A stretch of 64,000 bases of DNA from Candidatus Baldrarchaeum yapensis (GCA_016840465.1 JAEOSH010000002.1:36782-100781); one strand, 5' to 3'. Positions 16,194 through 49,200 are shown, counted from the first letter of the stretch. Program-made: numbers and translations. Notes: generated by a model not told the origin, from the sequence alone.

Positions 16194-17990
16194 TTATTTC
16201 CGAGAACTCCTTTTTATTTTCATTATCTCGTTGAGTAACTCCAGTTCTTCGGATGATAATTCCTCAGAGAACTTTAATTTTAACGTTCTGATGTGTGGCT
16301 CCGGCACGTCGACATAAATTATATCTCCTTCTTTTATGTGCCTACCGACTATGGCTTCCCTTATAGATATTGCAACTTCCATACCCGCGGTTGCTTCCCG
16401 AAGACTCTGACCTGCCTGTTGAATTTGCATTATTTGACCTATATATTTTCCACTTGATGTCATAAGGGGATACCTAGGTCGTATTCTTCCGACGAGTACC
16501 TTAACCCCCACGATTGCCGGCTTACTTCTCCTAAACACATAACCCGGCAGTATCATTATTTTTGCCGGCATTATTATCTTTTCTAATGTCAATTTCTTTT
16601 CTTCTTCTCGCTTCTTCGTAACCCAATTATCGTAATCCTCAAGTAGTTTGTAGATTATGTTGCTCCAAAATATTGGAATGTCATATTTTTTAGCTTCCTC
16701 TTCGGCGTCCGGCAAAATTTTTACGTTAAAAGCTAGTATTGCTGCTCGATATGGATCCTTTTCCATGACAACTACCGCTTCCATGACATCACGCTTTGAT
16801 ACATCGCCAATACCTGCAAGTCTTATTGGAACATCATGTCTCCGTAAGTAATTTACTAGCGCTTCTAGAGATCCCAAGGTATCCGCTTTTAAAACAACAC
16901 CAACCTTATCTGTCGAAATTATGATCTTCTTGACTTCCTTCTCAATCTCGTCAACTACGGATTGTAACTCTGATTCATCCCAGACCGCACGCATTGGAGA
17001 GCCAGCAACAGCGCCTTCGAGATTTGGAGCGACAAGTTTTACTCCTGCGGCTGCCACCACTTCATCTACCGGTGTGAACTTCTCACGAGGATCCCTTATT
17101 TCATCTAAAGGCTTTGGTAAAAGTATAGCACGAAGTTTTGTGACAATAGGTCCCTCTATTCCTCCTATTACGATGATATCATCCTTTCTCAGTACTCCAT
17201 CGTAGATTATCGCATTCACTGTTAAACCGAGTCCGAGTTCTTCCTTTACCTCGAGAATAACTCCTTTTGCCGGCCCTTCCTTAAATTCGAGTTGTTTTTT
17301 CATGTAGCGCTGAGTCAGACCGGCGAGTACAAGTAAAAGTTCAGGTATCCCCTCCCCCGTTTTTGCACTTGTTGGGACGATGGCAACTGTTTTTGAGAAA
17401 TCAGTAACTCTATCAAACCTTTCAGCGCTGAACCCGACGGCACTCAAGGACCCGACTATTTGGTATATTTTTTCGTCTAAGTACCTCCTGACGGCTGGAT
17501 CTTGCAGTTTTATTGATTCTGTAAAGTATTGTGTGGGTCCGGGTCTCCACCCGGGGATCCTGTCTATTTTGTTTGCGGCAACTAAAAATGGAACTCGCCT
17601 TTCCTTCAAGATGTCTATGCATTCCCATGTTTGAGCTTGGAATCCCTCCATTATATCAACTACTAGTATTGCGAAGTCTGCAGCGGCTCCGCCCCTAACT
17701 CTAAGGTTGTAAAATGCCTCATGCCCTGGAGTATCTATGACTAGGATTCCTGGGATTGTCAACTTCACTTTATACATTTCCATGAGTTTGCCACAAATTT
17801 TCTCAATTACGGGGGATGGAAAGAAGGATGCACCAATGTGCTGGGTCTAGCATCAGGCCGTGGAAAACGGCCTGATTATGCCCCCAGCCTCTCTTTGTTG
17901 GACGGCCGTCCCACGGATTTTATCAAGCAATGAGGTCTTTCCATGATCTATATGTCCCAAAACAACGCATATGGGCTGCCTTAGACGCAT
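16194..17990 (-). CDS. infB: Translation initiation factor aIF5B (IF-2) with an internal 30-nt non-coding insert; coding parts 17877-17990 and 16194-17846
   Basis: Exon 1 (38 codons) [38 protein letters not shown] ends at 17877. A 30-nt insert (17847-17876) with in-frame TGA and TAG follows. The frame then resumes [10 protein letters not shown]...DTPGHEAF (G2/G3 motifs). GGTGAGGTGATC sits upstream of ATG 17988-17990. The ORF track shows only the downstream 529 aa. Confidence 0.8.
17847..17876 (-). other. Candidate bulge-helix-bulge (BHB) intron inside infB (30 nt)
   Basis: Sense RNA: GCUGGG-GGCA-[UAA]-UCAGGCCG-uuuucca-CGGCCUGA-UGCU-[AGA]-CCCAGC. Outer helix 6 bp, central helix 4 bp (GGCA:UGCU with one G-U), two 3-nt bulges, inner hairpin 8 bp. 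Cutting after the 2nd nt of each bulge removes exactly 30 nt and restores ...GGI|TQHIGA. Confidence 0.6.
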
Positions 17991-18081
17991 AAGATCACCT
18001 CACCAATTAGCGTTAAGAAAACAAAGAGTACTTAGGCAAGCAAAAATATTTTTGGCTTAGGAAAAGAAGAAGAAATGACGT

Positions 18082-18534
18082 TTAATAAACCATTCTATCA
18101 CTGCATCTCTCATACTCGTATAGTTCATCATCGCTAAAGAATATTGACATTTCGTACTTTGCTCTCTCTACAGAGTCTGCAGCGTGAATTATGTTCTTCG
18201 TTAGATTTAGTCCAAAGTCCCCCCTTATAGTGCCGGGGCTTGCCTCTCTAGGATTTGTCGCTCCAATAAGTCTTCTAACGACCGATACTGCCTCCTCGCC
18301 TTCTATGACCATCGCAACTACGGGACCTGAAGTAACAAATGAAACTAACTCATCGAAGAAATGCTTACCCTTATGTATATCGTAAAGACGTTCGGCTCTC
18401 TCTTTATCCAGCCAAACCATTTTGAGAGCTACTACCTTAAGACCCTTGCGCTCGATTCTTGAAATTATCTCCCCTATGAGACCTCGTTGTACACCGTCAG
18501 GCTTTATCATTACAAAGGTTCTTTGTATTGCCAT
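18082..18534 (-). CDS. ndk: Nucleoside diphosphate kinase
   Basis: [24 protein letters not shown]...NIIHAADS. Confidence 0.9.
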
Positions 18535-18538
18535 TTAT

Positions 18539-18745
18539 TCACCCTCGTTTCTTCTCCTGTTCCCTTCCTCTCCAGAACTTCGTCCATTTGAATTTTCTAG
18601 GGTCTCTGCCCATCTCTATCATGGATATCCTACATTTGCTACTGCAGAACCAGAGAACCCTGCCATCATTTTTTACGTACATCATCCCTGTCCCAGGCTC
18701 TATTTCCTTTCCACAGAATGAACATTTTTGCCCACGTAACATCAC
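18539..18745 (-). CDS. rpl24e: Ribosomal protein L24e
   Basis: [31 protein letters not shown]. Confidence 0.85.
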
Positions 18746-18772
18746 GATTACCTCTTAGCCTCGCTACTCAGT

Positions 18773-18988
18773 TCACCTTACTGTGATCTTTCGTGCTTCA
18801 CGTTCGGTTTCTCTTAACATTAATATATCGCCAAGTCTAACCGGACCCTTCACATTCCGGGTGAGAATCCTACCTTTATCCTTTCCTTCTAATATCCTTA
18901 CACGTACCTGTATGACCTCACCAGCAACTCCCGTTCTTCCGATGATTTGTATTACTTCCGCTGGCGTTCCTCTGTCCTCGCTGCTCAT
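18773..18988 (-). CDS. rps28e: Ribosomal protein S28e
   Basis: [27 protein letters not shown]. Confidence 0.85.
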
Positions 18989-19007
18989 GAAATACCACCT
19001 ACTTCTC

Positions 19008-19379
19008 CTACTTCTTCAGCTCTTTTAATTTTCTTATTATGTCCTCTACGAGTTCTTTCGCATCTCCCGGATCTATTATGCACGCAGATGCTGCCTTTAC
19101 ATCTATGCCCGCAGCGGCACCCAGCCTTTCCTTACTTGGCACGTAGATATATGGGATGTTCTTTTCCTCAGCTAGTGGTGGGAGATGCATGACTATTTCA
19201 GGAGGATCTACATCCTCCGCTATCAGTACAAGTTTTGCCTGACCTCTTTCTATAGCTTTTGTTGTCTCATTAGTCCCCTTCTTTATCTTACCCGTGTTTC
19301 TTGCTATTTCAAGCGCCTGATACGCCTTTTCTGCAAGTTCCTTCGGGACCTCAAATTTTACATATGGGGGTTTTGCCAT
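19008..19379 (-). CDS. rpl7ae: Ribosomal protein L7Ae (K-turn binding)
   Basis: [59 protein letters not shown]. Confidence 0.9.
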
Positions 19380-19549
19380 TTTCTTCCTCCCTCCGGCGCC
19401 TTATGCCTTCATGAGTCAGCAGTGAAAAAAGGTAATCCATTAGTGTTTAAGAAAATTTCGTTGAGTGAACAGAATTTCGCATTTAATAGGTTCAAACTGA
19501 GGAAAAACTCTCCCTCTCTTCTTACCTTCACGTATTTAACTGATAGTTA

Positions 19550-20338: not shown

Positions 20339-20365
20339 GAAACTTCTCCCTAGTTTTTAGTTCTA

Positions 20366-20992
20366 TTACGTTTGCACAGGCTTTTGAGGTATTATTTTCG
20401 TCTCAAATTCCTCTACTGGGATTGGAAGATCTCCATCGGGTGGTATTGCTCCACGTTCGCGTAGGATTTGTCTCGCAAGTAACCAATAGATGAGAGACAA
20501 CGCTTTTCTTCCCTTATTATTCGTGGGAATCACAAGATCTATGTATGCAGTATTCGCATCCGTGTCGCAGAGGGCAACTATTGGGATTCTGGCATCAACG
20601 GCTTCTTGAACTGCTTGCCTATCTGCTCTCGGATCCGTAATTATTATCACGTCTGCCTCAACGTAATATTTGGAAGACGGGTTTGTTAAAGTCCCCGGAA
20701 TAAACCTTCCGGGGATGGCTATTGCCCCGACAACTTCAGCGAACTTTTTAACCGGTCTTTGTCCATACTGCCTTGCAGACACTGCAAGAATCTTTGATGG
20801 CTCAAATCTTGATAGGAATTTCGCTGCAATACGGATTCTTTCATCGGTTTTTCTGACATCAAGCACATACAGACCGTCTGGACGTGTTCGATATATGTAC
20901 TGTGCCATATATCCGGTCTTTATTTTCGTCCCTATGTGGACTCCTGCTGCAAGATATTGATCCAAAGGAACTAACAGAGTATCGCTACTCAT
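20366..20992 (-). CDS. rps2: Ribosomal protein S2
   Basis: [29 protein letters not shown]. Confidence 0.9.
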
Positions 20993-21215
20993 ATTCCATC
21001 TCCTCTTCAGCTTCTTCCTCCCTGGCAGGCGGGAAACTGAACTTCAATACTTCATCTATCAACTCCACATGGCTCAATAACATTCTTCTACAACAATATC
21101 TTTTTAATCCTAAATCATCAAGGACTTTTTTCGGGTCTTCACCACTTTCAACTCTTTTCTTGAACTCTTCCCATTTATCAGCAATAACCTTACCACATGT
21201 AAAGCTTCCCGCCAC
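20985..21215 (-). CDS. rpoN: DNA-directed RNA polymerase subunit N (Rpo10) with acidic C-terminal tail
   Basis: [14 protein letters not shown]...[19 protein letters not shown]; tail [11 protein letters not shown]. Confidence 0.8.
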
Positions 21216-21308
21216 CGACGGAAATTCGTCGGTGGTATCGGACCGGGATTATCATATCAGAGTCACCCTAACACCGTCGATGCATCTGATTCACCTCGAT
21301 ATTCAGCA

Positions 21309-23868: not shown

Positions 23869-26031
23869 TTGCTGGTGAGATGCATGAAGGAGATTCTCAT
23901 TTCATTGCTAATATCTTTGTTACCACTATTTGTAGCGCTCACTTTAATGATATGTTTAAAGAAGGCTAAGAGGTCAGAACTTTTAGTGCGCATATGCGCA
24001 GCATTTGTTATTTTTTGGACAATTTACTGTGTTTTTTCGGCAATGTTCTTTATGTTAATGGGAAGAGAGCCCGAAGTACTAATTACTAGGACAACATTCG
24101 ATTGGAATGCCGTGTTGTTGATGTTATCATTGCTGTTAGCCGAGGCTACACATGCCTTCATTGTTGCGGTCGTGTATTATCCGCTCTTCCTTTATCCGTT
24201 AATTTACGTTTTAGCGCCGATAATTTCCGTCTTAATACTGTGTATTAATGTGGGCACATCACGATTGAAAGAAGTAGATACGTGGATCGACATAAAGTCT
24301 TATGAGAGGATGAATTGGAAGGAAGAAGTGGAATTTCTGAAATTGTCAATTGTAAGCCTTCCAGTATCATTGTACTTCCTAGTAACGATACTGAGACTAT
24401 TCGGATATGAAGAGAACCCAATGGCCGTGGGAACTACGGCTCTTGGCTGGATAATTGAAGTGTTCGTAGTAACGCTACTGGCGTTTATTCTCGGAGCGCA
24501 TATTTTGTATGCGGCAAGAGTCTATCATCAAGGAGTCTTCTTAGGGGAGGTTTTGAAGGGTAGAATCTTTCGAGGCTTCCTTGTGGTCGGGCTAATAATG
24601 TCCATAATGAGCATCTTGACGTTTTTGCAGGCACACCCGATCGCCATTTACACGATACTCTACTTTTCCGCATACTACATTATGGTTGTAGGAATATTTC
24701 TTCTCTTTTTTAGATTCTTTGAACCGATCTCGGTCTACATATTTGTGAAATTGATTGCTTTCCTGAAGTCACCACGAGAGCTTAGAATTTCCCCCATCTC
24801 TATTGTGATAAGCGTAATGTGTGCTGTAGTTGCTGTTAGCGTGACATTGCTTTTCATGCGAACATTCCTTATCACTGTTCAACAACCGTTGACATACAGA
24901 ATATCAGAAGACATTTCTAAATGCTTGATACGGCAGGTTGCAACGTATAACTCCATATTGAATGTTTGTGCAGTACTAACAATGTCTGCTGTGCAAACTC
25001 TCCTAGCTATAGTAGTACTCTCAGCTACCGCGTTTGTCACGAAGAAGGCCCTCCTGGGACGCGGAATAATCGTTCCGGCAATCTTTACTGGAATCGCCAA
25101 GGTTTTCACGGATATCATTCTTGTCAAGATAGAAAGATCCCTATTCTGGGAAGTGTTTGTATTCTCTGCATTCAAGATCTCTAATGTGATGATCTTTTTG
25201 CCACGTTCTGCATTCCTGAAGATGGATCCTATACTGGAGACATCATTCATTGCATTATTTTATCCGTACGAGATACTAAAAACAATTTCGACTATATTGG
25301 TGCTGATAATAGCGTTTTATCTGTTCTTTGGAGGCATTCATACGTTTAGAGTCAAACAAGCGCGTGCAAATCTGTTATTCGTATGTGAAAGAGATGGTTT
25401 GCTTGATCGCGATACATTATTTAAACCAGTGGATGAACTGCCCATACTGATCGATTCTGTAGAATTAAATGATAACGAGAGGAGAATTCTTGACCTTTTG
25501 AGTCAGTACAAAGCGATGAAGTTCGCATCGCTTTTGGAATTGTCAAATATGAACCGAAAAGAATTAATTTCCGTGTTGAAAAGTTTGAAGCGCAAGAAGT
25601 TAATAGAGATGTATGCATGCGATTTGGAAGTGGAAGTTCCGGTACCCTCAATTCTCGGGCTTTATGTCGTTAGTAATGAGGGTCTACCCATATATTCTGA
25701 AGAATTTGCAGAAAAAGCTATAGATCCGACTTTGATTTCTGGAATGTTCTCCGCAATTTCTAGCTTTTTAAAGGAAACTGTAAGAAGTGCAGAACGGCTA
25801 AGAAAAATAGATCACGGGGATATAATTATAGTGCTCGAGTATGGATCTAAGTTTTTCGTCGCATTAATAGTCGACCGAGAGACGCCAGAAATCCGTATGC
25901 GCCTGAAGAACTTTGTTACGATGTTTGAAGTGAAATACGGCCGATTCATTAAAGAGGGGTACGTTGATCTTGGAAGGTTCGCGGACGCAAAAGATCTCGT
26001 GAGGGAGGTTTTTGGCGAATTCCTACAATAA
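23869..26031 (+). CDS. Polytopic membrane protein (about 13-14 predicted TM helices) with cytoplasmic C-terminal wHTH + Roadblock/LC7-like domain
   Basis: First about 480 aa are strongly hydrophobic. C-terminus NDNERRILDLLSQYKAMKFASLLELSNMNRKELISVLKSLKRKKLI looks wHTH. Following GLPIYSEEF...ISGMFSAISSFLKE...IIIVLEYGSKFFVALIVDRE...RMRLKNFV matches the Roadblock/LC7 beta-alpha-beta-beta-alpha pattern. Confidence 0.5.
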   Translation: MLVRCMKEILISLLISLLPLFVALTLMICLKKAKRSELLVRICAAFVIFWTIYCVFSAMFFMLMGREPEVLITRTTFDWNAVLLMLSLLLAEATHAFIVAVVYYPLFLYPLIYVLAPIISVLILCINVGTSRLKEVDTWIDIKSYERMNWKEEVEFLKLSIVSLPVSLYFLVTILRLFGYEENPMAVGTTALGWIIEVFVVTLLAFILGAHILYAARVYHQGVFLGEVLKGRIFRGFLVVGLIMSIMSILTFLQAHPIAIYTILYFSAYYIMVVGIFLLFFRFFEPISVYIFVKLIAFLKSPRELRISPISIVISVMCAVVAVSVTLLFMRTFLITVQQPLTYRISEDISKCLIRQVATYNSILNVCAVLTMSAVQTLLAIVVLSATAFVTKKALLGRGIIVPAIFTGIAKVFTDIILVKIERSLFWEVFVFSAFKISNVMIFLPRSAFLKMDPILETSFIALFYPYEILKTISTILVLIIAFYLFFGGIHTFRVKQARANLLFVCERDGLLDRDTLFKPVDELPILIDSVELNDNERRILDLLSQYKAMKFASLLELSNMNRKELISVLKSLKRKKLIEMYACDLEVEVPVPSILGLYVVSNEGLPIYSEEFAEKAIDPTLISGMFSAISSFLKETVRSAERLRKIDHGDIIIVLEYGSKFFVALIVDRETPEIRMRLKNFVTMFEVKYGRFIKEGYVDLGRFADAKDLVREVFGEFLQ

Positions 26032-32080: not shown

Positions 32081-32342
32081 ACAAAATCACCTCTCCACGT
32101 ATCAATCCATGGAGAAACAGACTGCAATCGCAATCTTTGCCTATATGGAGAAGTAGACTGTTTTTCTCGCGTTGCTACGATCTTGTTAGCAGTTGACTTT
32201 ACAACACCTCCAACTCACATCGGGAACCTCCGTTATTAGGAGGATGTATAAGGTAGATCTTTAAATAATTTTTTACCCTTGATGTTCGGGCATGCATACA
32301 TATCCAAGGAGCAATGTAACAGGAGAGAGTCAGGTGTGATGC

Positions 32343-33065
32343 ATGAAGAGGGTAGTGATAAAGATAGGCGGTTCTATAATCTTCCGGTCAGATGGAACCT
32401 TGAATGATGATCTGATGAGGAAGTACGCGATCGTAATTAGAGATTTATTAAAGGACGATATCTTGCCCTCTATTGTGACCGGTGGTGGCATTATGAGTAA
32501 AAAATACGTAAAATGGGCTAAAAACTTCGGCGCTAACGATGCATTATGTGATATGCTTGGAATAACGCTATCTCGCGCAAACGCCTTACTACTGATATCT
32601 GCTCTTGGAGATATTGCATACCCAACCGTTCCAACATCCTTAGAAGAAGCATTGAAGGCTATAGCATCGGGGAAGGTCGTAGTAATGGGAGGACTTCAAC
32701 CAGGGCAATCAACAAACGCCGTAGCAGCACTTTTAGCGGAAAGTATTGGTGCTGAAATGCTGATAATCGCTACAGACGTAGATGGAATTTACAGTGCTCC
32801 GCCTGAGATGTCCGATGCAAAATTGCTTAAAAGGATTTCGCCAGGCGGGTTGCTGTCGTTAATACTCAAGCATTCGAGTTTTGAAGCGGGAAAGTACCAG
32901 TTGTTTGACCCACTTGCTGTTCTAATTATACAGAGAGCCGGAATAGTTGTGAGAGTAATCAACGGAATTGATCCCGAGAATGTAGTCAGAGTTCTTAGGG
33001 GCGAGGACATTGGTACGTTAGTACTGCCTGAAGACAAGCGATATGGTGCGGGGGGTGGGATTTGA
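32343..33065 (+). CDS. pyrH: Uridylate kinase (archaeal type)
   Basis: VVIKIGGS...IVTGGG amino-acid-kinase fold, about 230 aa. The last 22 nt overlap tRNA-Leu on the opposite strand. Confidence 0.75.
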   Translation: MKRVVIKIGGSIIFRSDGTLNDDLMRKYAIVIRDLLKDDILPSIVTGGGIMSKKYVKWAKNFGANDALCDMLGITLSRANALLLISALGDIAYPTVPTSLEEALKAIASGKVVVMGGLQPGQSTNAVAALLAESIGAEMLIIATDVDGIYSAPPEMSDAKLLKRISPGGLLSLILKHSSFEAGKYQLFDPLAVLIIQRAGIVVRVINGIDPENVVRVLRGEDIGTLVLPEDKRYGAGGGI

Positions 33066-33159
33066 ACCCACGTAGGCCTACGCCAGCGGATCTTGAGTCT
33101 CGACCGGGGGTCACGTATAGCCCCGACCGCCGCCTTTGACCGGGCTCGGCCACCCCCGC
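33044..33159 (-). tRNA. tRNA-Leu (anticodon CAA) with 28-nt intron at non-canonical position 30/31
   Basis: Mature arm GCGGA-CUCAAGA-UCCGC only forms after removing UCGGGGCUAUACGUGACCCCCGGUCGAG (plus-strand 33099-33126). BHB: CGGC-[GGU]-CGGGG...CCCCG-GUCG-[AGA]. Type II variable arm, discriminator A, CCA encoded. Confidence 0.75.
33099..33126 (-). other. tRNA-Leu intron (28 nt, BHB, position 30/31)
   Basis: See tRNA-Leu. Central helix CGGC:GUCG (one G-U), 3-nt bulges GGU and AGA, inner hairpin CGGGG:CCCCG. Confidence 0.65.
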
Positions 33160-36547: not shown

Positions 36548-36865
36548 TTAACCGAATAGCGCTCCAAGCCCTGTAATCTCTTCCTCTTCCTTCTTCTCTT
36601 CTTTTTCCTTCTTTTCCTCTTCTGCCTTTGCCGGAGCTTTTTCTTCTTCAGCAGGAGCAGAAGGCGCAGTAGATGCGATGGGAGCGACAAAAGATGCGCT
36701 CTTTATGGCCTCTTCTATGTTTATCTCACCTATTGCTGCGACGAAGGCCTTTATCCTAGCAGCATCCGCCGATATGCCTGCGGCTTCGAGGACCTTTCTG
36801 AGGTTTTCTTCATTTATTTCCTTTCCGGCCCGATGCAATAGCAGTGTTGCATACACATATTCCAT
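36548..36865 (-). CDS. rpl12: Ribosomal stalk protein L12 (P1)
   Basis: [22 protein letters not shown]...[12 protein letters not shown]. Confidence 0.85.
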
Positions 36866-36886
36866 TGCATGCACACCTCCTTAACA

Positions 36887-37927
36887 TTAACCAAACAATG
36901 CACCTAACCCTGTTATTTCTTCTTCCTCTTTCTTTTCCTCTTCCTCTTTGACTTCTTCCTCCTTTATTTCTTTTTCTCTTTTAACCTCTTCGACCGGGGA
37001 AGGTGCCTCTACCGCAATCTCCTCAGGTATCAACTCGGGGTTGCGTTCCTTTATTTTCAGTGCGAGTGATCTAGCCTCCATATCGGCTTTTGCAAAGAGT
37101 TGTTGCAGAACCTCCGGAACCGGTAGGGCTACCGATAATGCAAGACTGTAAGCTTCCATATGGGCCTTCTGGAGAAGTGCAGGCATGATTTCACTGATCG
37201 GCAGTGCTGCGTTCAAAGCCAAGTTTAGGGCTTCTTGTTCAGCTTGAGAAATCATTTCTTTGAACTTATCGATATTAGGGAGAAGATCTTCGCCCTTTAG
37301 TATTATCCCGTCATCATATGCTGCATGCATGGTCAATCCTACGGTTATTGGTTCGATTCCCAGTCTTGAGAGAATTATGGCAACTTTTCTAGAAATCCTC
37401 TCTCCTGCTTTTACAACTACAGTGTCTTTGGTGACCCATATGGTTCCTGATTCCACCCTAGTGGGTATCCCTAGTTCACTGAGTTCGCTTATCACAGGTC
37501 CTGGGGGTATCCCCGTGTTTCCGGCTGGAACTATAATGTCATTCGGAGCAATTTGGCCTGCCTTCGCCGGCGCGCGCATCTTGTTCTTTTCTAGAAATAA
37601 ATTGAGTTTCACGGGATTCTCGTTTGTTAATATAAGTGCGGTTTGACCTCTTACTTCATCTGCAAGTTTCGATATTCCCTGTTTAAACTGTTCAGCCCTT
37701 CTTAAGGCTATCTTTATGAATGTGTTCTTCGATACTTTAATGATCGCCTTATCTCTGAGTGCAAACCTTAATTTTTGTAATTGAGCGGCACCTATTCCTT
37801 CGATCTTAGTAATACCTACAGCCTTGAACTTCTTAATTAGTTCCAACAACTCCCTTACCTTTTCTACTTTCCTCTTCGGAACTGGCCTGCCTTGCCGCGT
37901 TAATTCTACCTGTTGCATTCCTATCAC
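36887..37927 (-). CDS. rpl10: Ribosomal protein L10 (P0)
   Basis: 346 aa; C-terminal [15 protein letters not shown] identical to the L12 tail. Confidence 0.9.
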   Translation of the reverse strand: MIGMQQVELTRQGRPVPKRKVEKVRELLELIKKFKAVGITKIEGIGAAQLQKLRFALRDKAIIKVSKNTFIKIALRRAEQFKQGISKLADEVRGQTALILTNENPVKLNLFLEKNKMRAPAKAGQIAPNDIIVPAGNTGIPPGPVISELSELGIPTRVESGTIWVTKDTVVVKAGERISRKVAIILSRLGIEPITVGLTMHAAYDDGIILKGEDLLPNIDKFKEMISQAEQEALNLALNAALPISEIMPALLQKAHMEAYSLALSVALPVPEVLQQLFAKADMEARSLALKIKERNPELIPEEIAVEAPSPVEEVKREKEIKEEEVKEEEEKKEEEEITGLGALFG

Positions 37928-38580
37928 CTCAGCCTAACCTCCACTGTGGGACTCATCGTAAACTTCAAATGCACGGATTTGAGATGTTCACGCCCGCGCT
38001 CAAGTTTTTCTAGAACAAAATCCACCACAGCCTTGGCGTTTTCTGCTAGTTCCCTATCATCCATGTCCTCCGTTCCCACTTTAGTATTAATTATGGGATT
38101 ATTTCGCATTTTTATCTTCGTCATCCTCTGAAATCTTTCAACTATCGACTTAATGTCCGCCGTTGGTGGAATGGGAGTTGGCATTTTTCCACGTGGGCCA
38201 AGGAATCTACCTAAGATCCTACCGACAAGTGGCATAAGATCCGTTTGTGCAACGAAGAAATCAAATTGCTTAGCCAATTTCTTTATGGCTTTCTTATTAC
38301 CTTCTAAAGCCACCAAATCATCCCTTGTTATCACATGGGCATTTGTTTCTCTTTTTGCACGAAGCGCCAGATCTCCCTCTGCTATAACACAAACCTTTAT
38401 TGGCTTCTTTATCGGGTGGGGGAGTACCACGTTTGCAGTGATCCTGTTCTCTGGCTTATTTAGGTCTATTCCCTTAAATGACATGAGTATTTCAAGAGAT
38501 TGTTTAAATCTCCTCTTCTTATTCACTTCTCTTAGTTTCCTTATTGCCTCTAAGAAATTTTCAAGCGGTATGGACATCAA
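37924..38580 (-). CDS. rpl1: Ribosomal protein L1
   Basis: Typical L1 length and sequence; overlaps the L10 start. Confidence 0.9.
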   Translation of the reverse strand: MMSIPLENFLEAIRKLREVNKKRRFKQSLEILMSFKGIDLNKPENRITANVVLPHPIKKPIKVCVIAEGDLALRAKRETNAHVITRDDLVALEGNKKAIKKLAKQFDFFVAQTDLMPLVGRILGRFLGPRGKMPTPIPPTADIKSIVERFQRMTKIKMRNNPIINTKVGTEDMDDRELAENAKAVVDFVLEKLERGREHLKSVHLKFTMSPTVEVRLR

Positions 38581-39072
38581 TTATTCCTCCTTTAACAGAT
38601 GATCCCACAGTCCTTCATCAATTTCCTTTTGAACGACTTTCGGATGTTTGCCCTCAACAGTGACCCCCATACTAACACAGGTCCCAAGTATCGTCTTAAC
38701 AGCAGCTTTTAGACTGTACACGAACATATCCTTCATCTTCATCTTCGCTATTTTTATCACTTGTTCCATTTTAAGGTCTCCTATAATCTCGGACCCGGTG
38801 CGCCCACTACCCTTCTCCTTCTTTAGTTCCTTCAGTATGAGTGCACTTGCTGGCGGGGTACCTATCTCTACCCAGAACTCTTTAGTCTCTTTATCCACCG
38901 TCACTTTAACTGGAACTTTCATCCCAGCAAATTCCTTTGTTAGTTCATTTATCTTCTGAACAACCTGATACAGGTTGACCCCTGTTGGGCCGAGGGCGGG
39001 ACCGAGAGGAGGGCCTGCAGATGCCTTTCCTCCTTCCACTAATAACTCCACCGTTACCTTCTGGCCCATCAC
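38581..39072 (-). CDS. rpl11: Ribosomal protein L11
   Basis: [23 protein letters not shown]. Confidence 0.9.
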
Positions 39073-39560
39073 GTACCACCTCCACTTTCAGATCTGACGA
39101 CTTTGATTACATCTATATGGACCCTAAGTGGTATTGGGGACGCAGATGTCAAGAGTTCCACGACGGCCTCTTCCTTATCTGTATCAACCTTAATTACTCT
39201 AGCACGCTCGCCTCTAAATGGGCCGCTTGTTATTTCAACAATATCCCCAGATTTTATAGGTGTTATTGCTGTTTTTGGAACTAAAAATTGCTCTAATTGT
39301 TCGATCGGAATTTTTCCTATCGCGCGTCCTTTCACATGGGGAATGCCAAATGTTATTCTCCTTATTGTCTCCTTATTATCCGCCTCTATAAAAATAAATC
39401 CTCTAATCCCATCGGGAATCAAAATTGATGCTATGGGTTCTTTCCTCTCTCGTGCCCTTCTATAAATTATAGATGCAACTATTCGCTCCTGTCCAGCGGT
39501 CGTTCTGATCGCAAAAATTCCCATCTTTCTTCTCTCTTCGCTTTTACTCATGTCATACAC
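39069..39560 (-). CDS. spt5: Transcription elongation factor Spt5 (NusG; NGN + KOW)
   Basis: [18 protein letters not shown]...[22 protein letters not shown]. Confidence 0.85.
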
Positions 39561-39735
39561 CCGTTAAAAGAGCAAATAGTAGTCTGATCGCAAAGGCTAT
39601 TAGTCCTAAGATTATCAGCCCAAGTGCGGAGATCCTTAATCCTATTTTTAACTCTTCACCCGATGGCTTTTTAGCCATTCTCAATACACGCCTTAAGTCC
39701 TCAAAGAAGCTTTTTATCTTCATCATTATCATCAC
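39553..39735 (-). CDS. secE: Protein translocase subunit SecE (Sec61 gamma)
   Basis: 60 aa, single C-terminal TM; conserved position upstream of nusG. Confidence 0.75.
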   Translation of the reverse strand: MMIMMKIKSFFEDLRRVLRMAKKPSGEELKIGLRISALGLIILGLIAFAIRLLFALLTGV

Positions 39736-39767
39736 GCGCCAGAGGGAAGATCGATTTGCGTGTGAGC

Positions 39768-39780
39768 ATTCAGAATAAAT
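39768..39780 (-). promoter_or_regulatory. Candidate promoter element upstream of secE
   Basis: Sense TTTATTCTGAAT; the same 12-mer recurs upstream of ftsZ. Confidence 0.3.
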
Positions 39781-39859
39781 TCATTACGTCTGCTGTGCCA
39801 ACTCCCTTAAAAATTTATTTATTAGGAAATTTACGCGATGAAAAGAAACACCAAGGATG

Positions 39860-40954
39860 CTAAAAGCCTCCGGGCAACTCGACCTCGTGTGCGTTTAGAT
39901 GCTCCAGGAGTTTGACCATGTACGAGGAATCTATACCCGATGCTATTAACGTTATTCTCACAAATCTTTCAAGTGAGGGCTCTATAATAGCACCCCACTT
40001 TATTTCTGCCTCAGGATCTATCATCGACGATATCCTTTCTATGATTATCTGCACATCCTTAAGTGTCAGGTCCGGCCCACCTGTTATGTTTATAAGTGCA
40101 CCACGCGCACCACTTATGTCAACATCCAACAGGGGGTTGTATATTACTTTCTCGACGGCCTCCGTTGACCGGTTTTCTCCTTCACTTTCTCCGACTGAAA
40201 TTAGTGAGAGTCCTGCATCTTCCAATATTGTTCTCACATCGGCAAAATCAACATTTACAAGCCCTGGTTTGGTTACAAGTTCCGTAATTCCCTTTACTGC
40301 GCTTATCAATATCTCGTCTGCAAGGAGGAAAGCCTGAGAAATCGTGAGATCGGGATTTATGGACAATAATCTGTCATTTGGTATTGCAATAACCGTATCA
40401 CATATCTTTACCAATTTCTTCAATCCCGACATTGCATTTAACAAGCGCTTCTTGCCCTCTACTTTAAATGGCAGTGTGCAAACAGCCACTGTTAATGCTC
40501 CTTGATCCTTCGCAGCCCTCGCAACGATGGGTGAGGCTCCCGTTCCGGTTCCACCCCCTAGGCCACACGTTATAAACACAAGATCTGCACTTACGAGTTC
40601 TTTTATTCTGTCAAAGTCTTCTAAGGCTGCAGCTTCACCTATCGACGGGTCGTTCCCGGCGCCCAATCCGCCAGTTATCTCCTTACCTATTAGCAATTTT
40701 CTATCAGCCTTTGCTGATAAGAGGTCTTGAACATCTGTGTTTATAGCAAGCGTTTCCACACCATCTATTCCCAGTTCCTTTAACCTAGTTACAGTGTTGT
40801 TTCCAGCACCTCCCACTCCAGCCACTAATATCCTAGATCGCATACTCCTCAGTATTTTCTCAAGCTCCTCATCAGAGTACCATGACCTGCTTTCCACATC
40901 TCTGCGCTCATTGGTATCAAGTAAACCCTCCGCTATGTGATCCATTATGGTCAC
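39860..40954 (-). CDS. ftsZ: Cell division GTPase FtsZ
   Basis: GVGGAGNNTV and tubulin signature GLGGGTGTGASPIVA. GTG at 40954 or ATG at 40945. Confidence 0.85.
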   Translation of the reverse strand: MTIMDHIAEGLLDTNERRDVESRSWYSDEELEKILRSMRSRILVAGVGGAGNNTVTRLKELGIDGVETLAINTDVQDLLSAKADRKLLIGKEITGGLGAGNDPSIGEAAALEDFDRIKELVSADLVFITCGLGGGTGTGASPIVARAAKDQGALTVAVCTLPFKVEGKKRLLNAMSGLKKLVKICDTVIAIPNDRLLSINPDLTISQAFLLADEILISAVKGITELVTKPGLVNVDFADVRTILEDAGLSLISVGESEGENRSTEAVEKVIYNPLLDVDISGARGALINITGGPDLTLKDVQIIIERISSMIDPEAEIKWGAIIEPSLERFVRITLIASGIDSSYMVKLLEHLNAHEVELPGGF

Positions 40955-41037: not shown

Positions 41038-41979
41038 TTATATAAGGAGCGCTAGCAACGCCTTTTCCGTATGAAGTCGGTTCTCTGCTTGATCCCACAC
41101 GACCGAGTGCACGGGGTCATCTATAACTTCGGGTGCAACTTCCTCTCCTCTGTGAGCGGGAAGGCAATGCATAAAGATGAAGTCTTTCTTCGCATGTGAT
41201 ACGAGTTCTTTATTAACTTGCCAACCTTCAAAGTCCTTCTTTCGTTTTTCCGTCTCATGTTCCATGCCCATTGATACGAAGACATCAGTATAAATGACGT
41301 CCGCGTTTTCAACAGCCTCTATGGGATCATTTGTTATTACGACCTGCGAACCACTATGTGATGCGTTCTCCATTGTCCATTCTATTACGAATTCTTTTGG
41401 CTCATAGCCCTTAGGGGTTGCCACCGCAATATCTGCACCAAGTTTTGAGCACGCTATCATCAACGAGTGACAAACATTGTTTCCATCGCCCACGAATGCC
41501 ACCTTGACTCCTTTCAATCTACCTTTCTTCTCAATTATTGTCATGATGTCTGCTAGTGCTTGGCAAGGATGGAATAAGTCACTTAACGCATTTATTACCG
41601 GAACCGTTGCGAATTCCGCAAGTTCCTCTAAATCTTTATGATCATATACTCTAGCGACTATTCCGTGAACGTATCTACTCAATACTCGTGCAGTATCGGA
41701 TATTAGTTCTCCTCTTCTCAGTTGCAAATCGTCCCATCGAAGATAGAGAGCCGTGCCACCTAATTCATACATTGCAACCTCAAAACTGACTCTTGTACGC
41801 GTTGATGGTTTTTGGAATATCATTGCGATCGTCTTATTACGTAAAGGCTTTCTAAACTCGCCATACGCTCTTTCCCTTTTAAACTCAAACGATGATTGGA
41901 GAATGAACTGTATCTCTTCAGGAGAGTAATCTTGAAGTGTCAGGAAGTCTCTACCACGAATATTTGCCATAAAATTCAC
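41038..41979 (-). CDS. argF: Ornithine carbamoyltransferase
   Basis: STRTRVSFEVA and HCLPAHRGEEV motifs; 313 aa. Confidence 0.8.
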   Translation of the reverse strand: MNFMANIRGRDFLTLQDYSPEEIQFILQSSFEFKRERAYGEFRKPLRNKTIAMIFQKPSTRTRVSFEVAMYELGGTALYLRWDDLQLRRGELISDTARVLSRYVHGIVARVYDHKDLEELAEFATVPVINALSDLFHPCQALADIMTIIEKKGRLKGVKVAFVGDGNNVCHSLMIACSKLGADIAVATPKGYEPKEFVIEWTMENASHSGSQVVITNDPIEAVENADVIYTDVFVSMGMEHETEKRKKDFEGWQVNKELVSHAKKDFIFMHCLPAHRGEEVAPEVIDDPVHSVVWDQAENRLHTEKALLALLI

Positions 41980-43617: not shown

Positions 43618-43628
43618 GGAGCAACACC

Positions 43629-44300
43629 TCAGACGCCGAGGGTTTCACTAATCCTTACCATTTCGTGATATGTAGTGTTTAATCCCACAGCGGCGCCCTT
43701 CGAGTTTGCAATCATTCCCGCACCTACAAATGGCATACCATGGTTAACGGTGCCGATACCTATAGGGACTTTAAATATAGATGATATCCACTCTATCTCC
43801 TCATCCGAGAACATTGGATTTAATAATATTCCCTTATTGGTTGCAACCCCACAAGATCCAACAAGAGGGATCGTGTAATTTTCTCTCCTTAATACTTCAA
43901 CATCCAGTACATCGGCTATTATCCTAATGGCTTTAAAATCAAACTCGGGATGCACAATCGCATGTTTATCATTTGTAAGTATAAGGTTACCTAGTGCCGT
44001 TAACTTTGACGGCAACCTTTCGATATTGACATCACCACCGAGTTTCTCATGTAGCTGCCTTATCTCATCATCACTCGCATAATATGGAACCAGTATTCCT
44101 TTGGAATTAGCAGATACAAGAACGCCAATTAACGTACTATCGCCTATCTTCGCCTTTATAACCGGAACATCCAACGTTCTTTCTAGAGATTCTACTATTT
44201 TTTCCTCAGCATCAAATCTTACAAGAACAAATTTGTCTGTTGCGACTGCAAATACTCCGATATTAACATTGCCATTTATGTCTATTCGTATGATCGCCAA
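43629..44300 (-). CDS. eif6: Translation initiation factor 6 (aIF6)
   Basis: IRIDINGNVNIGVFAVATDKFVLV pentein repeats. Confidence 0.85.
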   Translation of the reverse strand: MAIIRIDINGNVNIGVFAVATDKFVLVRFDAEEKIVESLERTLDVPVIKAKIGDSTLIGVLVSANSKGILVPYYASDDEIRQLHEKLGGDVNIERLPSKLTALGNLILTNDKHAIVHPEFDFKAIRIIADVLDVEVLRRENYTIPLVGSCGVATNKGILLNPMFSDEEIEWISSIFKVPIGIGTVNHGMPFVGAGMIANSKGAAVGLNTTYHEMVRISETLGV

Positions 44301-44304
44301 ATTC

Positions 44305-44595: not shown

Positions 44596-44612
44596 ATTTT
44601 TTCACCCTAAAG

Positions 44613-44768
44613 TTAGAGTTTTAGTCTTTTTCGCCTCCAATGTCTTCTTTTGGGATGTGTCCTGACCCTTCCCTTCGTTCTTACGATAACCCATAATGGG
44701 ACACTTCTATTTGATTTTAAAGCGCTTGCAAGTCGTAATTTTTTTCCTAAAGGTTTTGCTCGAGCCAT
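44613..44768 (-). CDS. rpl39e: Ribosomal protein L39e (found manually; below ORF-track size cutoff)
   Basis: Minus-strand translation from ATG 44766-44768: [51 protein letters not shown] (51 aa). Confidence 0.8.
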
Positions 44769-44780
44769 TATGACACCTTC

Positions 44781-45116: not shown

Positions 45117-45140
45117 AACCGCCTCTCATCACGTACTTTC

Positions 45141-45602: not shown

Positions 45603-45672
45603 GCCCTTGAGATGATTACTTTCTGAAGGTTATCATTAATTTCAACTAAAATTTTTTGTCATCGGAAGTTCC

Positions 45673-46014
45673 TTAAGACCTCTTCTTAACCCTGTTAACT
45701 TTGTAGGGGTACCTTATTTGTCTTTTACAGTTAAAGCACGTAATGGTAATATGAGGATATCTATTCGTCCTGAGTCTAACCCGGCAATTAACACCGGGAA
45801 CGAGGAATGTACCACAATGTTTGCAGATTCTCCTCTTTATATGACGCGGTATGCGAACCCTACACTTCATACTTATTTTGCGTATTAAATCTATATACCG
45901 TTGTGCAAGTTCTGGCAACTCCTCGAACAACTTGCTTGCCATCTCATATAATATCTCCATTCGCTGGCGGGCAATGTCTCTTATCAGTGCGCGCTCACTC
46001 TTCCTTCTAGCCAT
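45673..46014 (-). CDS. rnp4: RNase P protein component 4 (Rpp21)
   Basis: RIARQRMEIL...zinc ribbon CKHCGTFLVPGVNCRVRL...CFNC. The ORF-track N-terminus is probably upstream read-through; start taken at the MARRK Met. Confidence 0.75.
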   Translation of the reverse strand: MARRKSERALIRDIARQRMEILYEMASKLFEELPELAQRYIDLIRKISMKCRVRIPRHIKRRICKHCGTFLVPGVNCRVRLRTNRYPHITITCFNCKRQIRYPYKVNRVKKRS

Positions 46015-46094
46015 TGCATCACATTCCTCATCATTTTTATTGGGTTTAAGACCTAATTTTTCATACACGCTTTAATGAATATAGATCTTTTTGG

Positions 46095-46811
46095 GTGCTC
46101 ACAATGCTGATGTTCATAGTTGCAGAAGCAGCACTCGAGGTGATTCCTCCAATCTTGAGACATTACAAGGCCATCCAGAGGCTTGCAAGCAGAAGAGGAA
46201 AGCGTCCTGATGAAATGCTATTAGACTCTTCACTTCATCATTACTATATGAGGGCGTATCTAGGGGATTTTCACAAACGCGGTCGCCCTGATATTGTACA
46301 CATGATTCTCCTATCAGTCATGGGAACCCCACTCAATAAGGAAGGATTGCTCTCCGTCTACATTCACACATATAACGATTATGTGCTTTACATTAACCCC
46401 GAGACAAGGCTTCCTAAGAACTACAATCGATTTGTTGGCCTTATGGAACAATTATTTAAATTAGGAAAAGTGCCCCCAGAAGGAGAGGCATTAATCAGAC
46501 TTGAGAAGAAAACATTAACTCAGTTGCTTGAGGAATTGAACCCTGATAAGGTGATACTGTTTTCGGAAGGTGGAGAATTGGTTGACCTTTTCGAGTTCTT
46601 TAAGAGGTTTTCTCCGGATGAAAATATAGCAGTCATGATTGGTGGTTTTCCGCACGGCAGTTTTAGGGAGGAAACGGAAAAACTTGCTGATGTCAAAGTA
46701 TCCATAGATCCTGAACCGTTGGAGGCGTGGGTAGTTGCATCTCGGATAATTTACGCATATGAATACACTATCGGCGTGACGAGAAATCGTTTATTGAAAA
46801 AGTTAGGGTGA
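46095..46811 (+). CDS. nep1: Ribosomal RNA small subunit methyltransferase Nep1 (SPOUT)
   Basis: RPDIVHMILLSVMGTPLNKEG motif. Confidence 0.8.
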   Translation: MLTMLMFIVAEAALEVIPPILRHYKAIQRLASRRGKRPDEMLLDSSLHHYYMRAYLGDFHKRGRPDIVHMILLSVMGTPLNKEGLLSVYIHTYNDYVLYINPETRLPKNYNRFVGLMEQLFKLGKVPPEGEALIRLEKKTLTQLLEELNPDKVILFSEGGELVDLFEFFKRFSPDENIAVMIGGFPHGSFREETEKLADVKVSIDPEPLEAWVVASRIIYAYEYTIGVTRNRLLKKLG

Positions 46812-48031
46812 TAAAGTTGTTAATAGGAATTGTGGGAAAGCCCTCATCGGGAAAAACAACGTTTTTGAATGCTGCATGTTTGACTTCATACAAAGTTGCC
46901 GATTACCCGTTTACAACCATAGAGCCCCAGCCTGGGACTGCTTTTGTCCGCGTAAAATGTGTTTGTAAGGAGTTTGACGTTAAATGCAATCCTAAAGTGG
47001 GTTATTGTGTCAATGGCGTACGATATGTGCCCGTACATATGCTCGATGTTGCTGGTCTCGTTCCAGATGCCTGGATGGGAAGGGGGTTAGGGAATAAGTT
47101 CTTAGATGACCTTAGAACGGCAGATGCCCTGATTCATGTGGTTGATGCAAGTGGCTCCACTGATGCTGAGGGCAGAAAAGTGCCACCAGGATCATGGGAT
47201 CCGGTAAAGGACGTCGAATTTCTCGAAAGAGAGATAGCTATGTGGATAGTTCAGATACTCAAAAGGGACTGGAGAAGGCTTGTAGGCAAAGCACGAAGTT
47301 TAAGAGTAAAGCCGGAGGATGTATTATTTGAACGATTATCTGGATTGAAAATTTCAAAAACGGATATAGCATCCGCTTTAAAGGCCAGCGGGTTGGAGGG
47401 AAAGAAGCTAGATACTTGGAATGATGACGATCTGTATAATTTCGTTAAAGTTTTACGAGAGATATCAAAACCGATGATAATTGCTGCGAACAAAATAGAT
47501 TTGCCATACGCGGAAGAGAACCTCAAGCGACTCATAGAAGTATTTAAAGGAAGATATGAAGTTGTTCCTTGTTGCGCTGCAGGTGAATATGCACTTAGGC
47601 AACTTGCACAGCGAGGGATAATCAGTTATAACCCAGGGGATTGCGATTTTGAAATTTTAAAGCCGGAAAAACTTTCTAAAGATGCTTTAGATAGATTGGA
47701 AAGGTTAAGATCTCAGGTGCTAAAAAAATATGGATCTACTGGCGTACAGATGGTATTAGAAAAGGTAGTATTTGAGTTATTGGATCTTATCCCCGTATTT
47801 CCGGTAGAAGATCCAAAGAGACTTACCGATCATCATGGAAATGTGCTTCCGGATGTCTTTTTGGTACCGAGGGGCTCAACCGCACGGGATTTAGCTTACA
47901 TGATACATACCGAATTAGGAGATACGTTTCTTTATGCAATTGATGTAAGAACGGGTATGAGACTGGGTGAAGACGAGGAACTCAAAGAGAGAGCTGTTGT
48001 AAAAATTGTTGCAACAGCCGCGAGGAGGTAG
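46808..48031 (+). CDS. Obg-like GTPase (YchF/Ygr210 family)
   Basis: GIVGKPSSGKTTFLNA P-loop, PFTTIEPQPG G2; about 400 aa. Confidence 0.7.
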   Translation: MIKLLIGIVGKPSSGKTTFLNAACLTSYKVADYPFTTIEPQPGTAFVRVKCVCKEFDVKCNPKVGYCVNGVRYVPVHMLDVAGLVPDAWMGRGLGNKFLDDLRTADALIHVVDASGSTDAEGRKVPPGSWDPVKDVEFLEREIAMWIVQILKRDWRRLVGKARSLRVKPEDVLFERLSGLKISKTDIASALKASGLEGKKLDTWNDDDLYNFVKVLREISKPMIIAANKIDLPYAEENLKRLIEVFKGRYEVVPCCAAGEYALRQLAQRGIISYNPGDCDFEILKPEKLSKDALDRLERLRSQVLKKYGSTGVQMVLEKVVFELLDLIPVFPVEDPKRLTDHHGNVLPDVFLVPRGSTARDLAYMIHTELGDTFLYAIDVRTGMRLGEDEELKERAVVKIVATAARR

Positions 48032-48036
48032 GAAAT

Positions 48037-49014
48037 ATGGAAATTAGAGTCTTGGTAACTGACCCTATACACAAAGATGGCATCGAACTTCTGAAAAAAA
48101 GTGGTTTTTCTGTAGATGAAAAGCCCGACATTAGCCATGATGAACTCGTGAAAATAGTAGGAGATTATGAAGTACTTATTGTGAGAGGACGTACTAAAGT
48201 CACAAGAGACGTGATTTCGGTTGCTAAAAAGTTAAAGGTCATTGGGAGAGCTGGTGTCGGTTTGGATAATATAGACTTAGAGGCCGCACGAGAGAGAGGT
48301 ATTACTGTATTCAATGCGCCGGAGGCCGCGTCAGTTGCCGTTGCAGAACTCGTATTTGGGCTTCTAATTGCAGTAATGCGCGGAATATGTTTAGGAAATG
48401 CGGCACTTAAAAGAGGAGAATGGATTAAAGCAAAACTTATGGGACATGAGTTAAGAGGAAAAGTTTTAGGAATAATAGGCTTAGGCAGAATAGGAACCGA
48501 GGTTGCAAAGCGCGCTAAGGCATTTGAAATGTACGTAAAGGCGTATGATGTTAGGGAAGAGGCCCGGCAATTGGCAGAAAGTTTAGGAGTCGAGTTTGTC
48601 GGGACTTCTAGGGAGGCGTTTGAGGAGTTGCTTAGAACTTCTGACATTATAACGATTCATGTCCCACTGACCAAGGACACTTATCATTTAATAGGCAAAA
48701 AAGAACTATCACTCATGAAACCCAATGCTATCATCATAAATACCTCACGAGGTGGGGTTATCGATGAAAATGCCCTTTATGAGTTCCTCAAAGAGAGAAA
48801 AATATACGCCGCAGGACTCGATGTTTTCGAACAAGAACCCCCACGAGATCTGCGATTAGTCGGATTACCCAATGTGGTGGCTACACCACATATAGGGGCA
48901 TCAACAGAGGAGGCCCAAAGAGCAGCATCTATAACTATTGCTGAGAGAATAATTCAGTACTTTGGAGAGAAAGGATGGCGCCGGGGGCGGGATTCGAACC
49001 CGCGCGGCCCGTAA
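48037..49014 (+). CDS. D-isomer-specific 2-hydroxyacid dehydrogenase family (phosphoglycerate dehydrogenase-like)
   Basis: GIIGLGRIGTEVAKRA NAD motif and catalytic R/E/H pattern. The last 39 nt overlap tRNA-Ser antisense. Confidence 0.7.
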   Translation: MEIRVLVTDPIHKDGIELLKKSGFSVDEKPDISHDELVKIVGDYEVLIVRGRTKVTRDVISVAKKLKVIGRAGVGLDNIDLEAARERGITVFNAPEAASVAVAELVFGLLIAVMRGICLGNAALKRGEWIKAKLMGHELRGKVLGIIGLGRIGTEVAKRAKAFEMYVKAYDVREEARQLAESLGVEFVGTSREAFEELLRTSDIITIHVPLTKDTYHLIGKKELSLMKPNAIIINTSRGGVIDENALYEFLKERKIYAAGLDVFEQEPPRDLRLVGLPNVVATPHIGASTEEAQRAASITIAERIIQYFGEKGWRRGRDSNPRGP

Positions 49015-49026
49015 GGGCCACGGGCT

Positions 49027-49039
49027 TTATGGTCGAAAT
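49027..49039 (-). other. tRNA-Ser intron 2 (13 nt, relaxed BHB/BHL at canonical 37/38)
   Basis: Bulges AGA and AAA flank a 3-bp helix UGG:CCA; no inner stem, so processing would need a relaxed-specificity endonuclease. Confidence 0.4.
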
Positions 49040-49047
49040 CTCCAGGC

Positions 49048-49066
49048 TTGCGCCCGCCGTAGCGGT
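49048..49066 (-). other. tRNA-Ser intron 1 (19 nt, strict BHB core)
   Basis: Helix GCGC:GCGC flanked by bulges GGA and AAG; inner stem CCGC-uacg-GCGG. Confidence 0.55.
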
Positions 49067-49200
49067 CCGCGCCTTGGCCAGCTAGGCTACCCCGGCGCGA
49101 TAATACCTATATGGGAGTTATGGTGGGGAAATGATTACATCCCGATACGGTACTTCGCTCTACTAATTTTACTTTTGGTTTTGACAGAAACTTATATTTT

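Follow-up and report, generated by a model that had tools for sequence, protein, structure and literature searches.

How are core information-processing genes expressed when their reading frames are broken near the 5' ends? This question is raised by a stretch of 64,000 nucleotides (nt) from Candidatus Baldrarchaeum yapensis (GCA_016840465.1, JAEOSH010000002.1:36782-100781; hereafter the window), in which the genes aIF5B (infB) and rpoN (Rpo10) are interrupted by inserts of 30 and 31 nt. We examined positions 16194-49096 of the window, and flank checks extended 10 kb to either side. Five introns of the bulge-helix-bulge (BHB) type were found at four loci in this range, every one on the minus strand: the mRNAs of aIF5B and rpoN have one each, and the other three belong to two tRNAs. 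A sequence-only reading of the same DNA had described three BHB elements within about 32 kb. All of them are present, on the minus strand, at the places given, but the count was too low, as a fourth locus lies in rpoN. We consider it very probable that the transcripts of this archaeon carry at least five short BHB introns here, and that these are spliced by machinery of the tRNA-splicing endonuclease (EndA) type with an enzyme of broad specificity.

In the process that we propose, the primary transcript would fold so that the two splice sites come to lie in 3-nt bulges with a 4-base-pair (bp) helix between them. EndA would cut after base 2 of each bulge, a ligase of the RtcB type would join the exons, and an intron of 13-42 nt, probably circular, would be set free. 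Both reactions are inferred for the living cell, as is the type of the enzyme.

BHB elements in aIF5B and rpoN

The two interrupted genes, which sit less than 4 kb apart, consist of the following parts.

17877..17990, minus strand: aIF5B exon 1, 38 codons (MRLRQ...REAGGI), with the P-loop GHIDHGKT inside
17847..17876, minus strand: aIF5B BHB intron, 30 nt, AUCAGGCCGUUUUCCACGGCCUGAUGCUAG, with in-frame stop codons
17840..17888, minus strand: full aIF5B hBHBh' motif, GCUGGG / GGCA / UAA / inner hairpin / UGCU / AGA / CCCAGC
16194..17846, minus strand: aIF5B exon 2, 550 codons and stop, beginning TQHIGAS...
21237..21255, minus strand: rpoN exon 1, ATG ATA ATC CCG GTC CGA T, that is MIIPVR and the first base of a Cys codon
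21206..21236, minus strand: rpoN BHB intron, 31 nt, ACCACCGACGAAUUUCCGUCGGUGGCGGGAA, located by the BHB scorer
20985..21205, minus strand: rpoN exon 2, opening GC TTT ACA TGT, its stop codon overlapping the start of rpsB

As it stands in the DNA, the aIF5B gene is split into a 45-codon open reading frame (ORF) with the P-loop (17990..17853) and, about 70 nt further on, a 529-codon ORF without a P-loop. Between the conserved REAGGI and TQHIGAS lie 30 nt with in-frame stops. The minimum-energy fold of this region is hBHBh', with an outer helix of 6 bp (GCUGGG:CCCAGC), a central helix of 4 bp (GGCA:UGCU), two bulges of 3 nt (UAA and AGA) and an inner helix of 8-9 bp. It has an energy of -30.9 kcal/mol (z = -5.9), and none of 200 shuffled sequences folded equally well. 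We scored BHB motifs with a program of our own, which weights the pairs in the outer, central and inner helices. The aIF5B motif reached 48, the runner-up in the window 36, and the maxima in six shuffled windows were 33-39.

Cuts after base 2 of each bulge join GGC AUA to ACC CAG and yield an aIF5B of 588 amino acids. The product reads ...REAGGI/TQHIGAS... (the slash marks the junction), in which GGI/TQHIGAS is an invariant motif, and it is colinear with the intron-less homologues. The predicted junction in the spliced RNA is ...GGGGGCAUA/ACCCAGCAC... (GGCAUA/ACCCAG). Exon 2 is otherwise intact as an ORF over its 550 codons.

The motif scored at 36 points is the 31-nt insert 21236..21206, which begins 19 nt into rpoN and had been overlooked in the sequence-only reading. 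That reading had, nevertheless, predicted further hidden mRNA introns, and this is the one found within the window. The rpoN element has a central helix UCCG:CGGG, the bulges AUA and AAG, an inner helix of 9 bp and an outer helix of 2 bp (GG:CU), which is minimal or relaxed. The insert shifts the frame, and its removal gives MIIPVR/CFTCGK, the canonical RpoN N-terminus with the zinc-binding cysteines, identical to that of the 20 intron-less homologues read (P0127-P0134 and matches of atypical length). In the predicted spliced RNA, ...GGUCCGAU/GCUUUACAUG... (CCGAU/GCUUU), the junction falls within the Cys codon (U/GC). The ORF of exon 2 is otherwise intact over 72 codons.

Neither mRNA offers an alternative full-length reading frame. 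Since translation of the unspliced mRNAs would stop after 45 residues (aIF5B) and 21 residues (rpoN), expression of both proteins is expected to depend on the tRNA-splicing machinery.

Three variants of each mRNA intron were compared. In relatives, the aIF5B intron is found at the same junction as two variants of 33 nt (loci L016/L017 and L020-L024), both of which fold as a perfect hBHBh' (z = -6.5 and -5.8). Across the three variants (30, 33 and 33 nt) all 57 cells of the 19-pair structure are paired, and only 19-40% pairing is obtained in a control in which the partners are slid by 1-3 columns. The inner helix measures 8-11 bp, and four of its pairs change on both sides among the three variants. 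The rpoN intron likewise recurs at the same junction, with 31 nt (L018/L019) and 42 nt (L020). All rpoN variants share the bulges and the central helix UCCG:CGGR and every one restores MIIPVRCFTCGK, while the inner helix of L020 is unrelated and 14 bp long. The changes CGGG to CGGA and outer GG to AG (AG:CU in L020) convert G-U pairs to A-U pairs. The core of a 4-bp central helix and opposed 3-nt bulges was present in every relative examined. For both mRNA introns it is the structure and not the sequence that is conserved among the three variants.

Exon 1 of aIF5B differs from that of L016 at 31 of 114 nt, with 21 synonymous and 5 non-synonymous codon differences in 38 codons. By this comparison it is under purifying selection as coding sequence. 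Exon 1 is therefore translated, and its translation is meaningful only with exon 2 attached.

The nearest aIF5B relatives form a cluster at 69% identity with 30 members, and all 16 of the members listed are called in N-terminally truncated form. Three of these listed members are named Candidatus Baldrarchaeia or Baldrarchaeota by NCBI. Among the matches listed, the remaining homologues have at most 63% identity and are full length. When genome and metagenome collections were scanned with the spliced aIF5B, only relatives of about 50% identity without a BHB intron, one of them with an intein, and bacterial IF2 were recovered. Two samples (ERZ584659, ERZ27227321; L018/L019) contain, at low coverage, an rpoN that is 87% identical to that of the window and has a 31-nt intron. 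In the lineage with 69% identity in aIF5B (L020), the intron of the contig-linked rpoN is the 42-nt one. It follows that there are at least three intron-bearing lineages of Baldrarchaeia.

The tRNA introns and the splicing endonuclease

Four tRNA genes were detected in the window by Rfam and ARAGORN, two of which (33159..33047 and 49096..48979, minus strand) align only with large inserts.

33047..33159, minus strand: tRNA-Leu(CAA) gene (Rfam, 41 bits), with a 28-nt intron at 33126..33099, position 30/31
48979..49096, minus strand: tRNA-Ser(GGA) gene (Rfam, 39.3 bits), with two introns
49066..49048, minus strand: tRNA-Ser(GGA) intron 1, 19 nt, position 29/30, HBh'-like
49039..49027, minus strand: tRNA-Ser(GGA) intron 2, 13 nt, position 37/38, bulge-helix-loop

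Perfect cloverleaves are obtained for both tRNAs only once the introns are removed: by ARAGORN, tRNA-Leu(CAA) without its intron is a perfect tRNA of 85 nt, and tRNA-Ser(GGA) without both of its introns one of 86 nt. For each of the three introns, the exon boundaries that the cloverleaf requires match bases 2 and 3 of the 3-nt bulges around the 4-bp helix. In tRNA-Leu the central helix is CGGC:GUCG, the inner helix has 5 bp and the outer one just 2 bp. Intron 1 of tRNA-Ser has the central helix GCGC:GCGC, an inner helix of 4 bp with a tetraloop and an outer helix of 1 bp. Intron 2, (C)UGG:CCA(U), uses the anticodon stem as outer helix and has no inner helix, in agreement with the missing inner hairpin described earlier. 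The weak outer helices claimed in the sequence-only reading hold for tRNA-Leu and for tRNA-Ser intron 1, but not for aIF5B, where the helix is strong (6 bp, strict hBHBh').

The ARAGORN reading of unspliced tRNA-Ser as 'tRNA-Pyl(cta)' misfits the bulge geometry. So does its placement of tRNA-Ser intron 2 at 36/37 (loop CUGGAAA), which we consider unlikely. The 3' CCA is genome-encoded in both intron-bearing tRNA genes (33044-33046 and 48976-48978, minus strand). Two plus-strand ORFs overlap them with their 3' ends: one of the amino-acid kinase family (32343..33065) overlaps tRNA-Leu by 19 nt (33047-33065), and one for a 2-hydroxyacid dehydrogenase (48037..49014) overlaps tRNA-Ser by 36 nt (48979-49014).

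All three tRNA introns are non-canonical, at 30/31 in tRNA-Leu, at 29/30 in tRNA-Ser, and at 37/38 of tRNA-Ser in the bulge-helix-loop form. They fit this class without any peculiarity, in a lineage that surveys have not covered so far. The non-canonical and multiple tRNA introns of Thermoproteales, TACK and Asgard archaea (Marck and Grosjean 2003; Sugahara 2008; PMC4090602, PMC5829648) occupy the same positions 29/30 and 30/31, likewise occur two per tRNA and in HBh' and hBH forms, and depend on a broad-specificity EndA (PMC4090602, PMC5829648); there is no essential difference from those found here.

Non-canonical substrates have been assigned to a broad-specificity EndA, heterotetrameric or epsilon2, and not to the strict alpha4 or alpha'2 enzymes (PMC5829648; Yoshihisa, PMC4090602). 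The introns described here depart from the pattern of the strict enzymes, in that two of the three tRNA introns lie off 37/38, one tRNA has two introns and one intron is of the bulge-helix-loop form. A broad-specificity enzyme would thus be required, because of the positions 29/30 and 30/31, the outer helices of 1-2 bp and the bulge-helix-loop intron. To this extent the relaxed specificity proposed in the sequence-only reading is borne out by the substrate types, as judged by the two papers cited.

The same reading had seen a tension between such an enzyme and a gene order of euryarchaeal appearance, and had named Crenarchaeota, Nanoarchaeota and ARMAN, or Euryarchaeota, DPANN and Korarchaeota, as the lineages to consider. 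The order itself, ftsZ-secE-nusG-rpl11-rpl1-rpl10-rpl12, was found as described. All of these lineages miss the Asgard label, however. The proteins of the contig carry the NCBI name Candidatus Baldrarchaeia archaeon, and the taxonomy places this class within the Asgard kingdom Promethearchaeati. About 3.3-4.9 kb before window position 1 (L010 5101-6678, minus strand) lies a gene for a protein of 525 amino acids with a coiled-coil tail and a Ribophorin_I domain (38.5 bits, cut-off 25), a eukaryote-like component of the glycosylation complex. Ribophorin_I-domain proteins are an Asgard hallmark, and the one in the left flank is consistent with an Asgard origin. Asgard archaea have FtsZ. Kaneta et al. 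(PMC5829648) described an (alpha-beta)2 EndA with an L1 loop in Asgard archaea, a loop that confers broad specificity and is otherwise typical of TACK. The tension dissolves, since the lineage is Asgard, with a reported broad-specificity EndA: a relaxed endonuclease beside an ftsZ-type gene order is expected for Asgard archaea and is no paradox, the order being a usual one in a lineage with FtsZ.

36548..40954, minus strand: ftsZ-secE-nusG-rpl11-rpl1-rpl10(P0)-rpl12(P1) cluster (Pfam; secE by size and position alone)

Several observations weigh against our interpretation, some against the introns as described and some against the enzyme. No protein of about 100% identity to the spliced aIF5B or rpoN product was found among the best database matches. 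For rpoN, the minimum-energy fold favours a slipped register over the BHB register, and the BHB registers of tRNA-Leu and of tRNA-Ser intron 1 compete with slipped alternatives that the energy model prefers. In rpoN and in tRNA-Leu it is the comparison with relatives and the product that support the BHB register, and not the energy. Moreover, outer helices of 2 bp may still meet the minimal definition of hBHBh', so that the firm evidence for a relaxed enzyme comes mainly from tRNA-Ser introns 1 and 2 and from the non-canonical positions. The lineage label is that of the submitters, and both Asgard and Bathyarchaeia proteins are among the nearest aIF5B homologues without an intron (about 62% identity). 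Finally, no endA (tRNA_int_endo match) was found in the window or its 10-kb flanks, and the type of the enzyme therefore rests on lineage and literature.

The introns may be real and yet be served by another type of EndA, which could be epsilon2-like, a fused alpha'2 form with a specificity loop or an architecture not described so far. The lack of a local endA leaves room for this, and duplications, fusions and transfers have repeatedly reshaped EndA, with a fused form carrying L1 in Korarchaea (Korarchaeum; PMC5829648). In addition, the Asgard sample of that study consists of four genomes, with Baldrarchaeia not among them. Nevertheless, the (alpha-beta)2 form with L1 was present in all four Asgard phyla examined there, and its authors describe the loop as conserved across TACK and Asgard archaea (PMC5829648). 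We regard another architecture as unlikely; by analogy with these relatives the enzyme is most likely an (alpha-beta)2 EndA with an L1 loop.

Together, the introns would make a natural test panel for the specificity of EndA, with one strict BHB, three elements with a weak outer helix and one bulge-helix-loop. With the lineage known, the inference of a relaxed EndA in spite of an FtsZ-type gene order is nothing new, and the value of the locus lies in the two conserved introns of protein genes.

Alternatives to splicing

The inserts could be something other than introns, namely hairpin insertions resembling miniature inverted-repeat transposable elements, signs of decaying pseudogenes, or assembly errors, the genes being dead or replaced by copies. 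This would agree with the fact that the NCBI pipeline calls no aIF5B coding sequence at the locus (L002), and with the absence of the spliced-form proteins from the best database matches. However, four independent assemblies of the species, 99.95-99.98% identical and with different single-nucleotide polymorphisms, carry identical inserts, and assembly error is therefore ruled out. Lineages whose aIF5B is just 69% identical have the inserts at the same position, and their helices show compensating changes. The purifying selection on aIF5B exon 1, with its 21 synonymous against 5 non-synonymous differences, and the intact downstream ORFs of 550 and 72 codons also speak against dead genes, and aIF5B and rpoN are universal, essential and normally single-copy. 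Moreover, the junction needed to regain the invariant residues is, to the nucleotide, the one that follows from the BHB geometry. We therefore judge this explanation very improbable.

To the same small degree we would credit that EndA cuts both mRNAs as a switch for decay or regulation, with no productive joining of the exons. There is a precedent in Haloferax, where EndA acts on a BHB in the 5' untranslated region of HVO_1309, with an effect on expression (PMC7714728). Here, however, the BHB lies inside the coding sequence of essential genes, and the conserved protein needs ligation of the exons, as no other full-length frame is available. The selection on aIF5B exon 1 as coding sequence also argues for ligated exons.

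Least credible of all is that the inserts are skipped in translation by ribosomal bypassing, hopping or frameshifting. A stable hairpin that begins at the take-off point and is soon followed by a stop codon does resemble the bypass of phage T4 gene 60. However, take-off and landing codons that match are absent, and as the rpoN junction lies within a codon, its Cys is obtainable only by joining of RNA. The conserved part is the EndA recognition geometry of two 3-nt bulges and a 4-bp helix, while the remaining hairpin varies, and the same geometry occurs in neighbouring tRNAs, where translation has no role.

Known systems, annotation and neighbouring features

Protein-only mRNA splicing at paired stem-loops is known from HAC1/XBP1, where a short intron that changes the frame is removed by Ire1 and the exons are joined by tRNA ligase or RtcB. 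Ire1 does not belong to the Sen/EndA family, and the likeness to the introns of aIF5B and rpoN is functional only.

Besides its own case in a 5' untranslated region, a study of 2020 (PMC7714728) gave cbf5 of Crenarchaeota as the only BHB intron reported in archaeal mRNA. Like the two introns here, that of the cbf5 pre-mRNA (Watanabe 2002; Yoshinari 2006; Yokobori 2009, PMC2738675) is a short element of the BHB type that interrupts the reading frame of an informational gene. Its removal by the tRNA-splicing endonuclease, its association with hetero-oligomeric EndA and its lineage-specific gain and loss (PMC2738675) are features that we count as shared. In contrast to that system, the hosts here are aIF5B and rpoN, two genes within 4 kb, cbf5 itself is uninterrupted, and the organism is an Asgard archaeon rather than a member of Desulfurococcales or Sulfolobales.

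49826..50839, minus strand: cbf5, with full-length DKCLD, TruB_N, TruB_C_2 and PUA matches, uninterrupted

The HVO_1309 element of Haloferax volcanii (PMC7714728) is also an EndA mRNA substrate other than tRNA or rRNA, but it lies in an untranslated region and in a euryarchaeon with the strict alpha'2 enzyme, whereas here reading frames are interrupted. Literature searches on aIF5B with BHB and on Asgard with BHB yielded no report of an mRNA intron; their coverage was incomplete, and rpoN was not searched separately. According to the literature searched, the introns of aIF5B and rpoN are new members of the cbf5-type class, which they extend to two further genes and to another lineage.

Another kind of intervening element is known in the G domain of aIF5B, an intein (L005/L012). 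It differs from the BHB intron in being removed at the protein level, in its position at the P-loop about 25 codons upstream, and in its length of hundreds of codons. The aIF5B of 'uncultured archaeon binchicken_co409_32' (L005 ~2850-3020, L012; 50% identity) has such a P-loop intein (...IVHN/TTLLDRIR) and no BHB intron.

With two more genes, conserved across several lineages of Baldrarchaeia, endonuclease-dependent mRNA splicing would be more than a curiosity of one gene, and it would be present in Asgard archaea. Of about 75 genes in the window, two are interrupted; each has its insert close to the 5' end, and each serves core information processing. Because of this, the genome may hold dozens of mini-introns that gate the transcription and translation machinery, and Baldrarchaeia may have co-opted EndA and RtcB as a genuine mRNA-splicing system. 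We put this forward as a possible but doubtful extension. If true, no prokaryote would be known with denser protein-only splicing of mRNAs, and the lineage concerned belongs to the archaea that stand closest to eukaryotes.

A scan of the window with a relaxed BHB motif combined with ORF restoration gave no further interrupted gene. Four candidates (41466..41263, 43698..43626, 32333..32085 and 46091..46143) were rejected as chance, as the genes are full length and the scores lie within the shuffle range. In agreement with this, 40 genes for ribosomal proteins and for other parts of the translation and transcription machinery matched their Pfam profiles from the start, with the exception of L34e (from position 10). 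A BHB-like motif in the NDK gene of L020 (8993..9029) was also rejected; it is a palindrome of the coding sequence, and removal of the 37 nt would break an intact ORF.

The mini-introns break automatic annotation. We compared the calls of loci L001-L004 and of proteins P0004, P0005, P0125 and P0245-P0258. Apart from the locus at which aIF5B was dropped, the aIF5B of this species is elsewhere called as truncated proteins of 527 or 529 amino acids and that of the relatives as fragments of 424-559 amino acids, and RpoN is absent from the calls or begins wrongly with MAGSFTCGK (P0125). Completeness estimates and marker-gene phylogenies of these genomes are therefore distorted.

Further features were observed in and around the window. 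The gene rtcA, for an RNA 3'-terminal phosphate cyclase with RTC and RTC_insert domains, lies at 3519-4604 (plus strand); the enzyme and the RtcB ligase pathway share the same RNA-end chemistry, and no rtcB or endA is found nearby. Between DUF2095 and deoxyhypusine synthase, an ORF of 720 amino acids (23869-26031, plus strand) has no Pfam match at E <= 0.1. About 3.1-3.8 kb past window position 64000 (L009 15070-15700), between rpsM and fen1, lies a G+C-rich island of about 630 bp in a genome of 42% G+C. An Rfam search of the island gave no match; it contains a strong BHB-like motif (score 41; putative 55-nt insert 15346..15400) and may be a piece of foreign DNA or encode an RNA that has escaped recognition.

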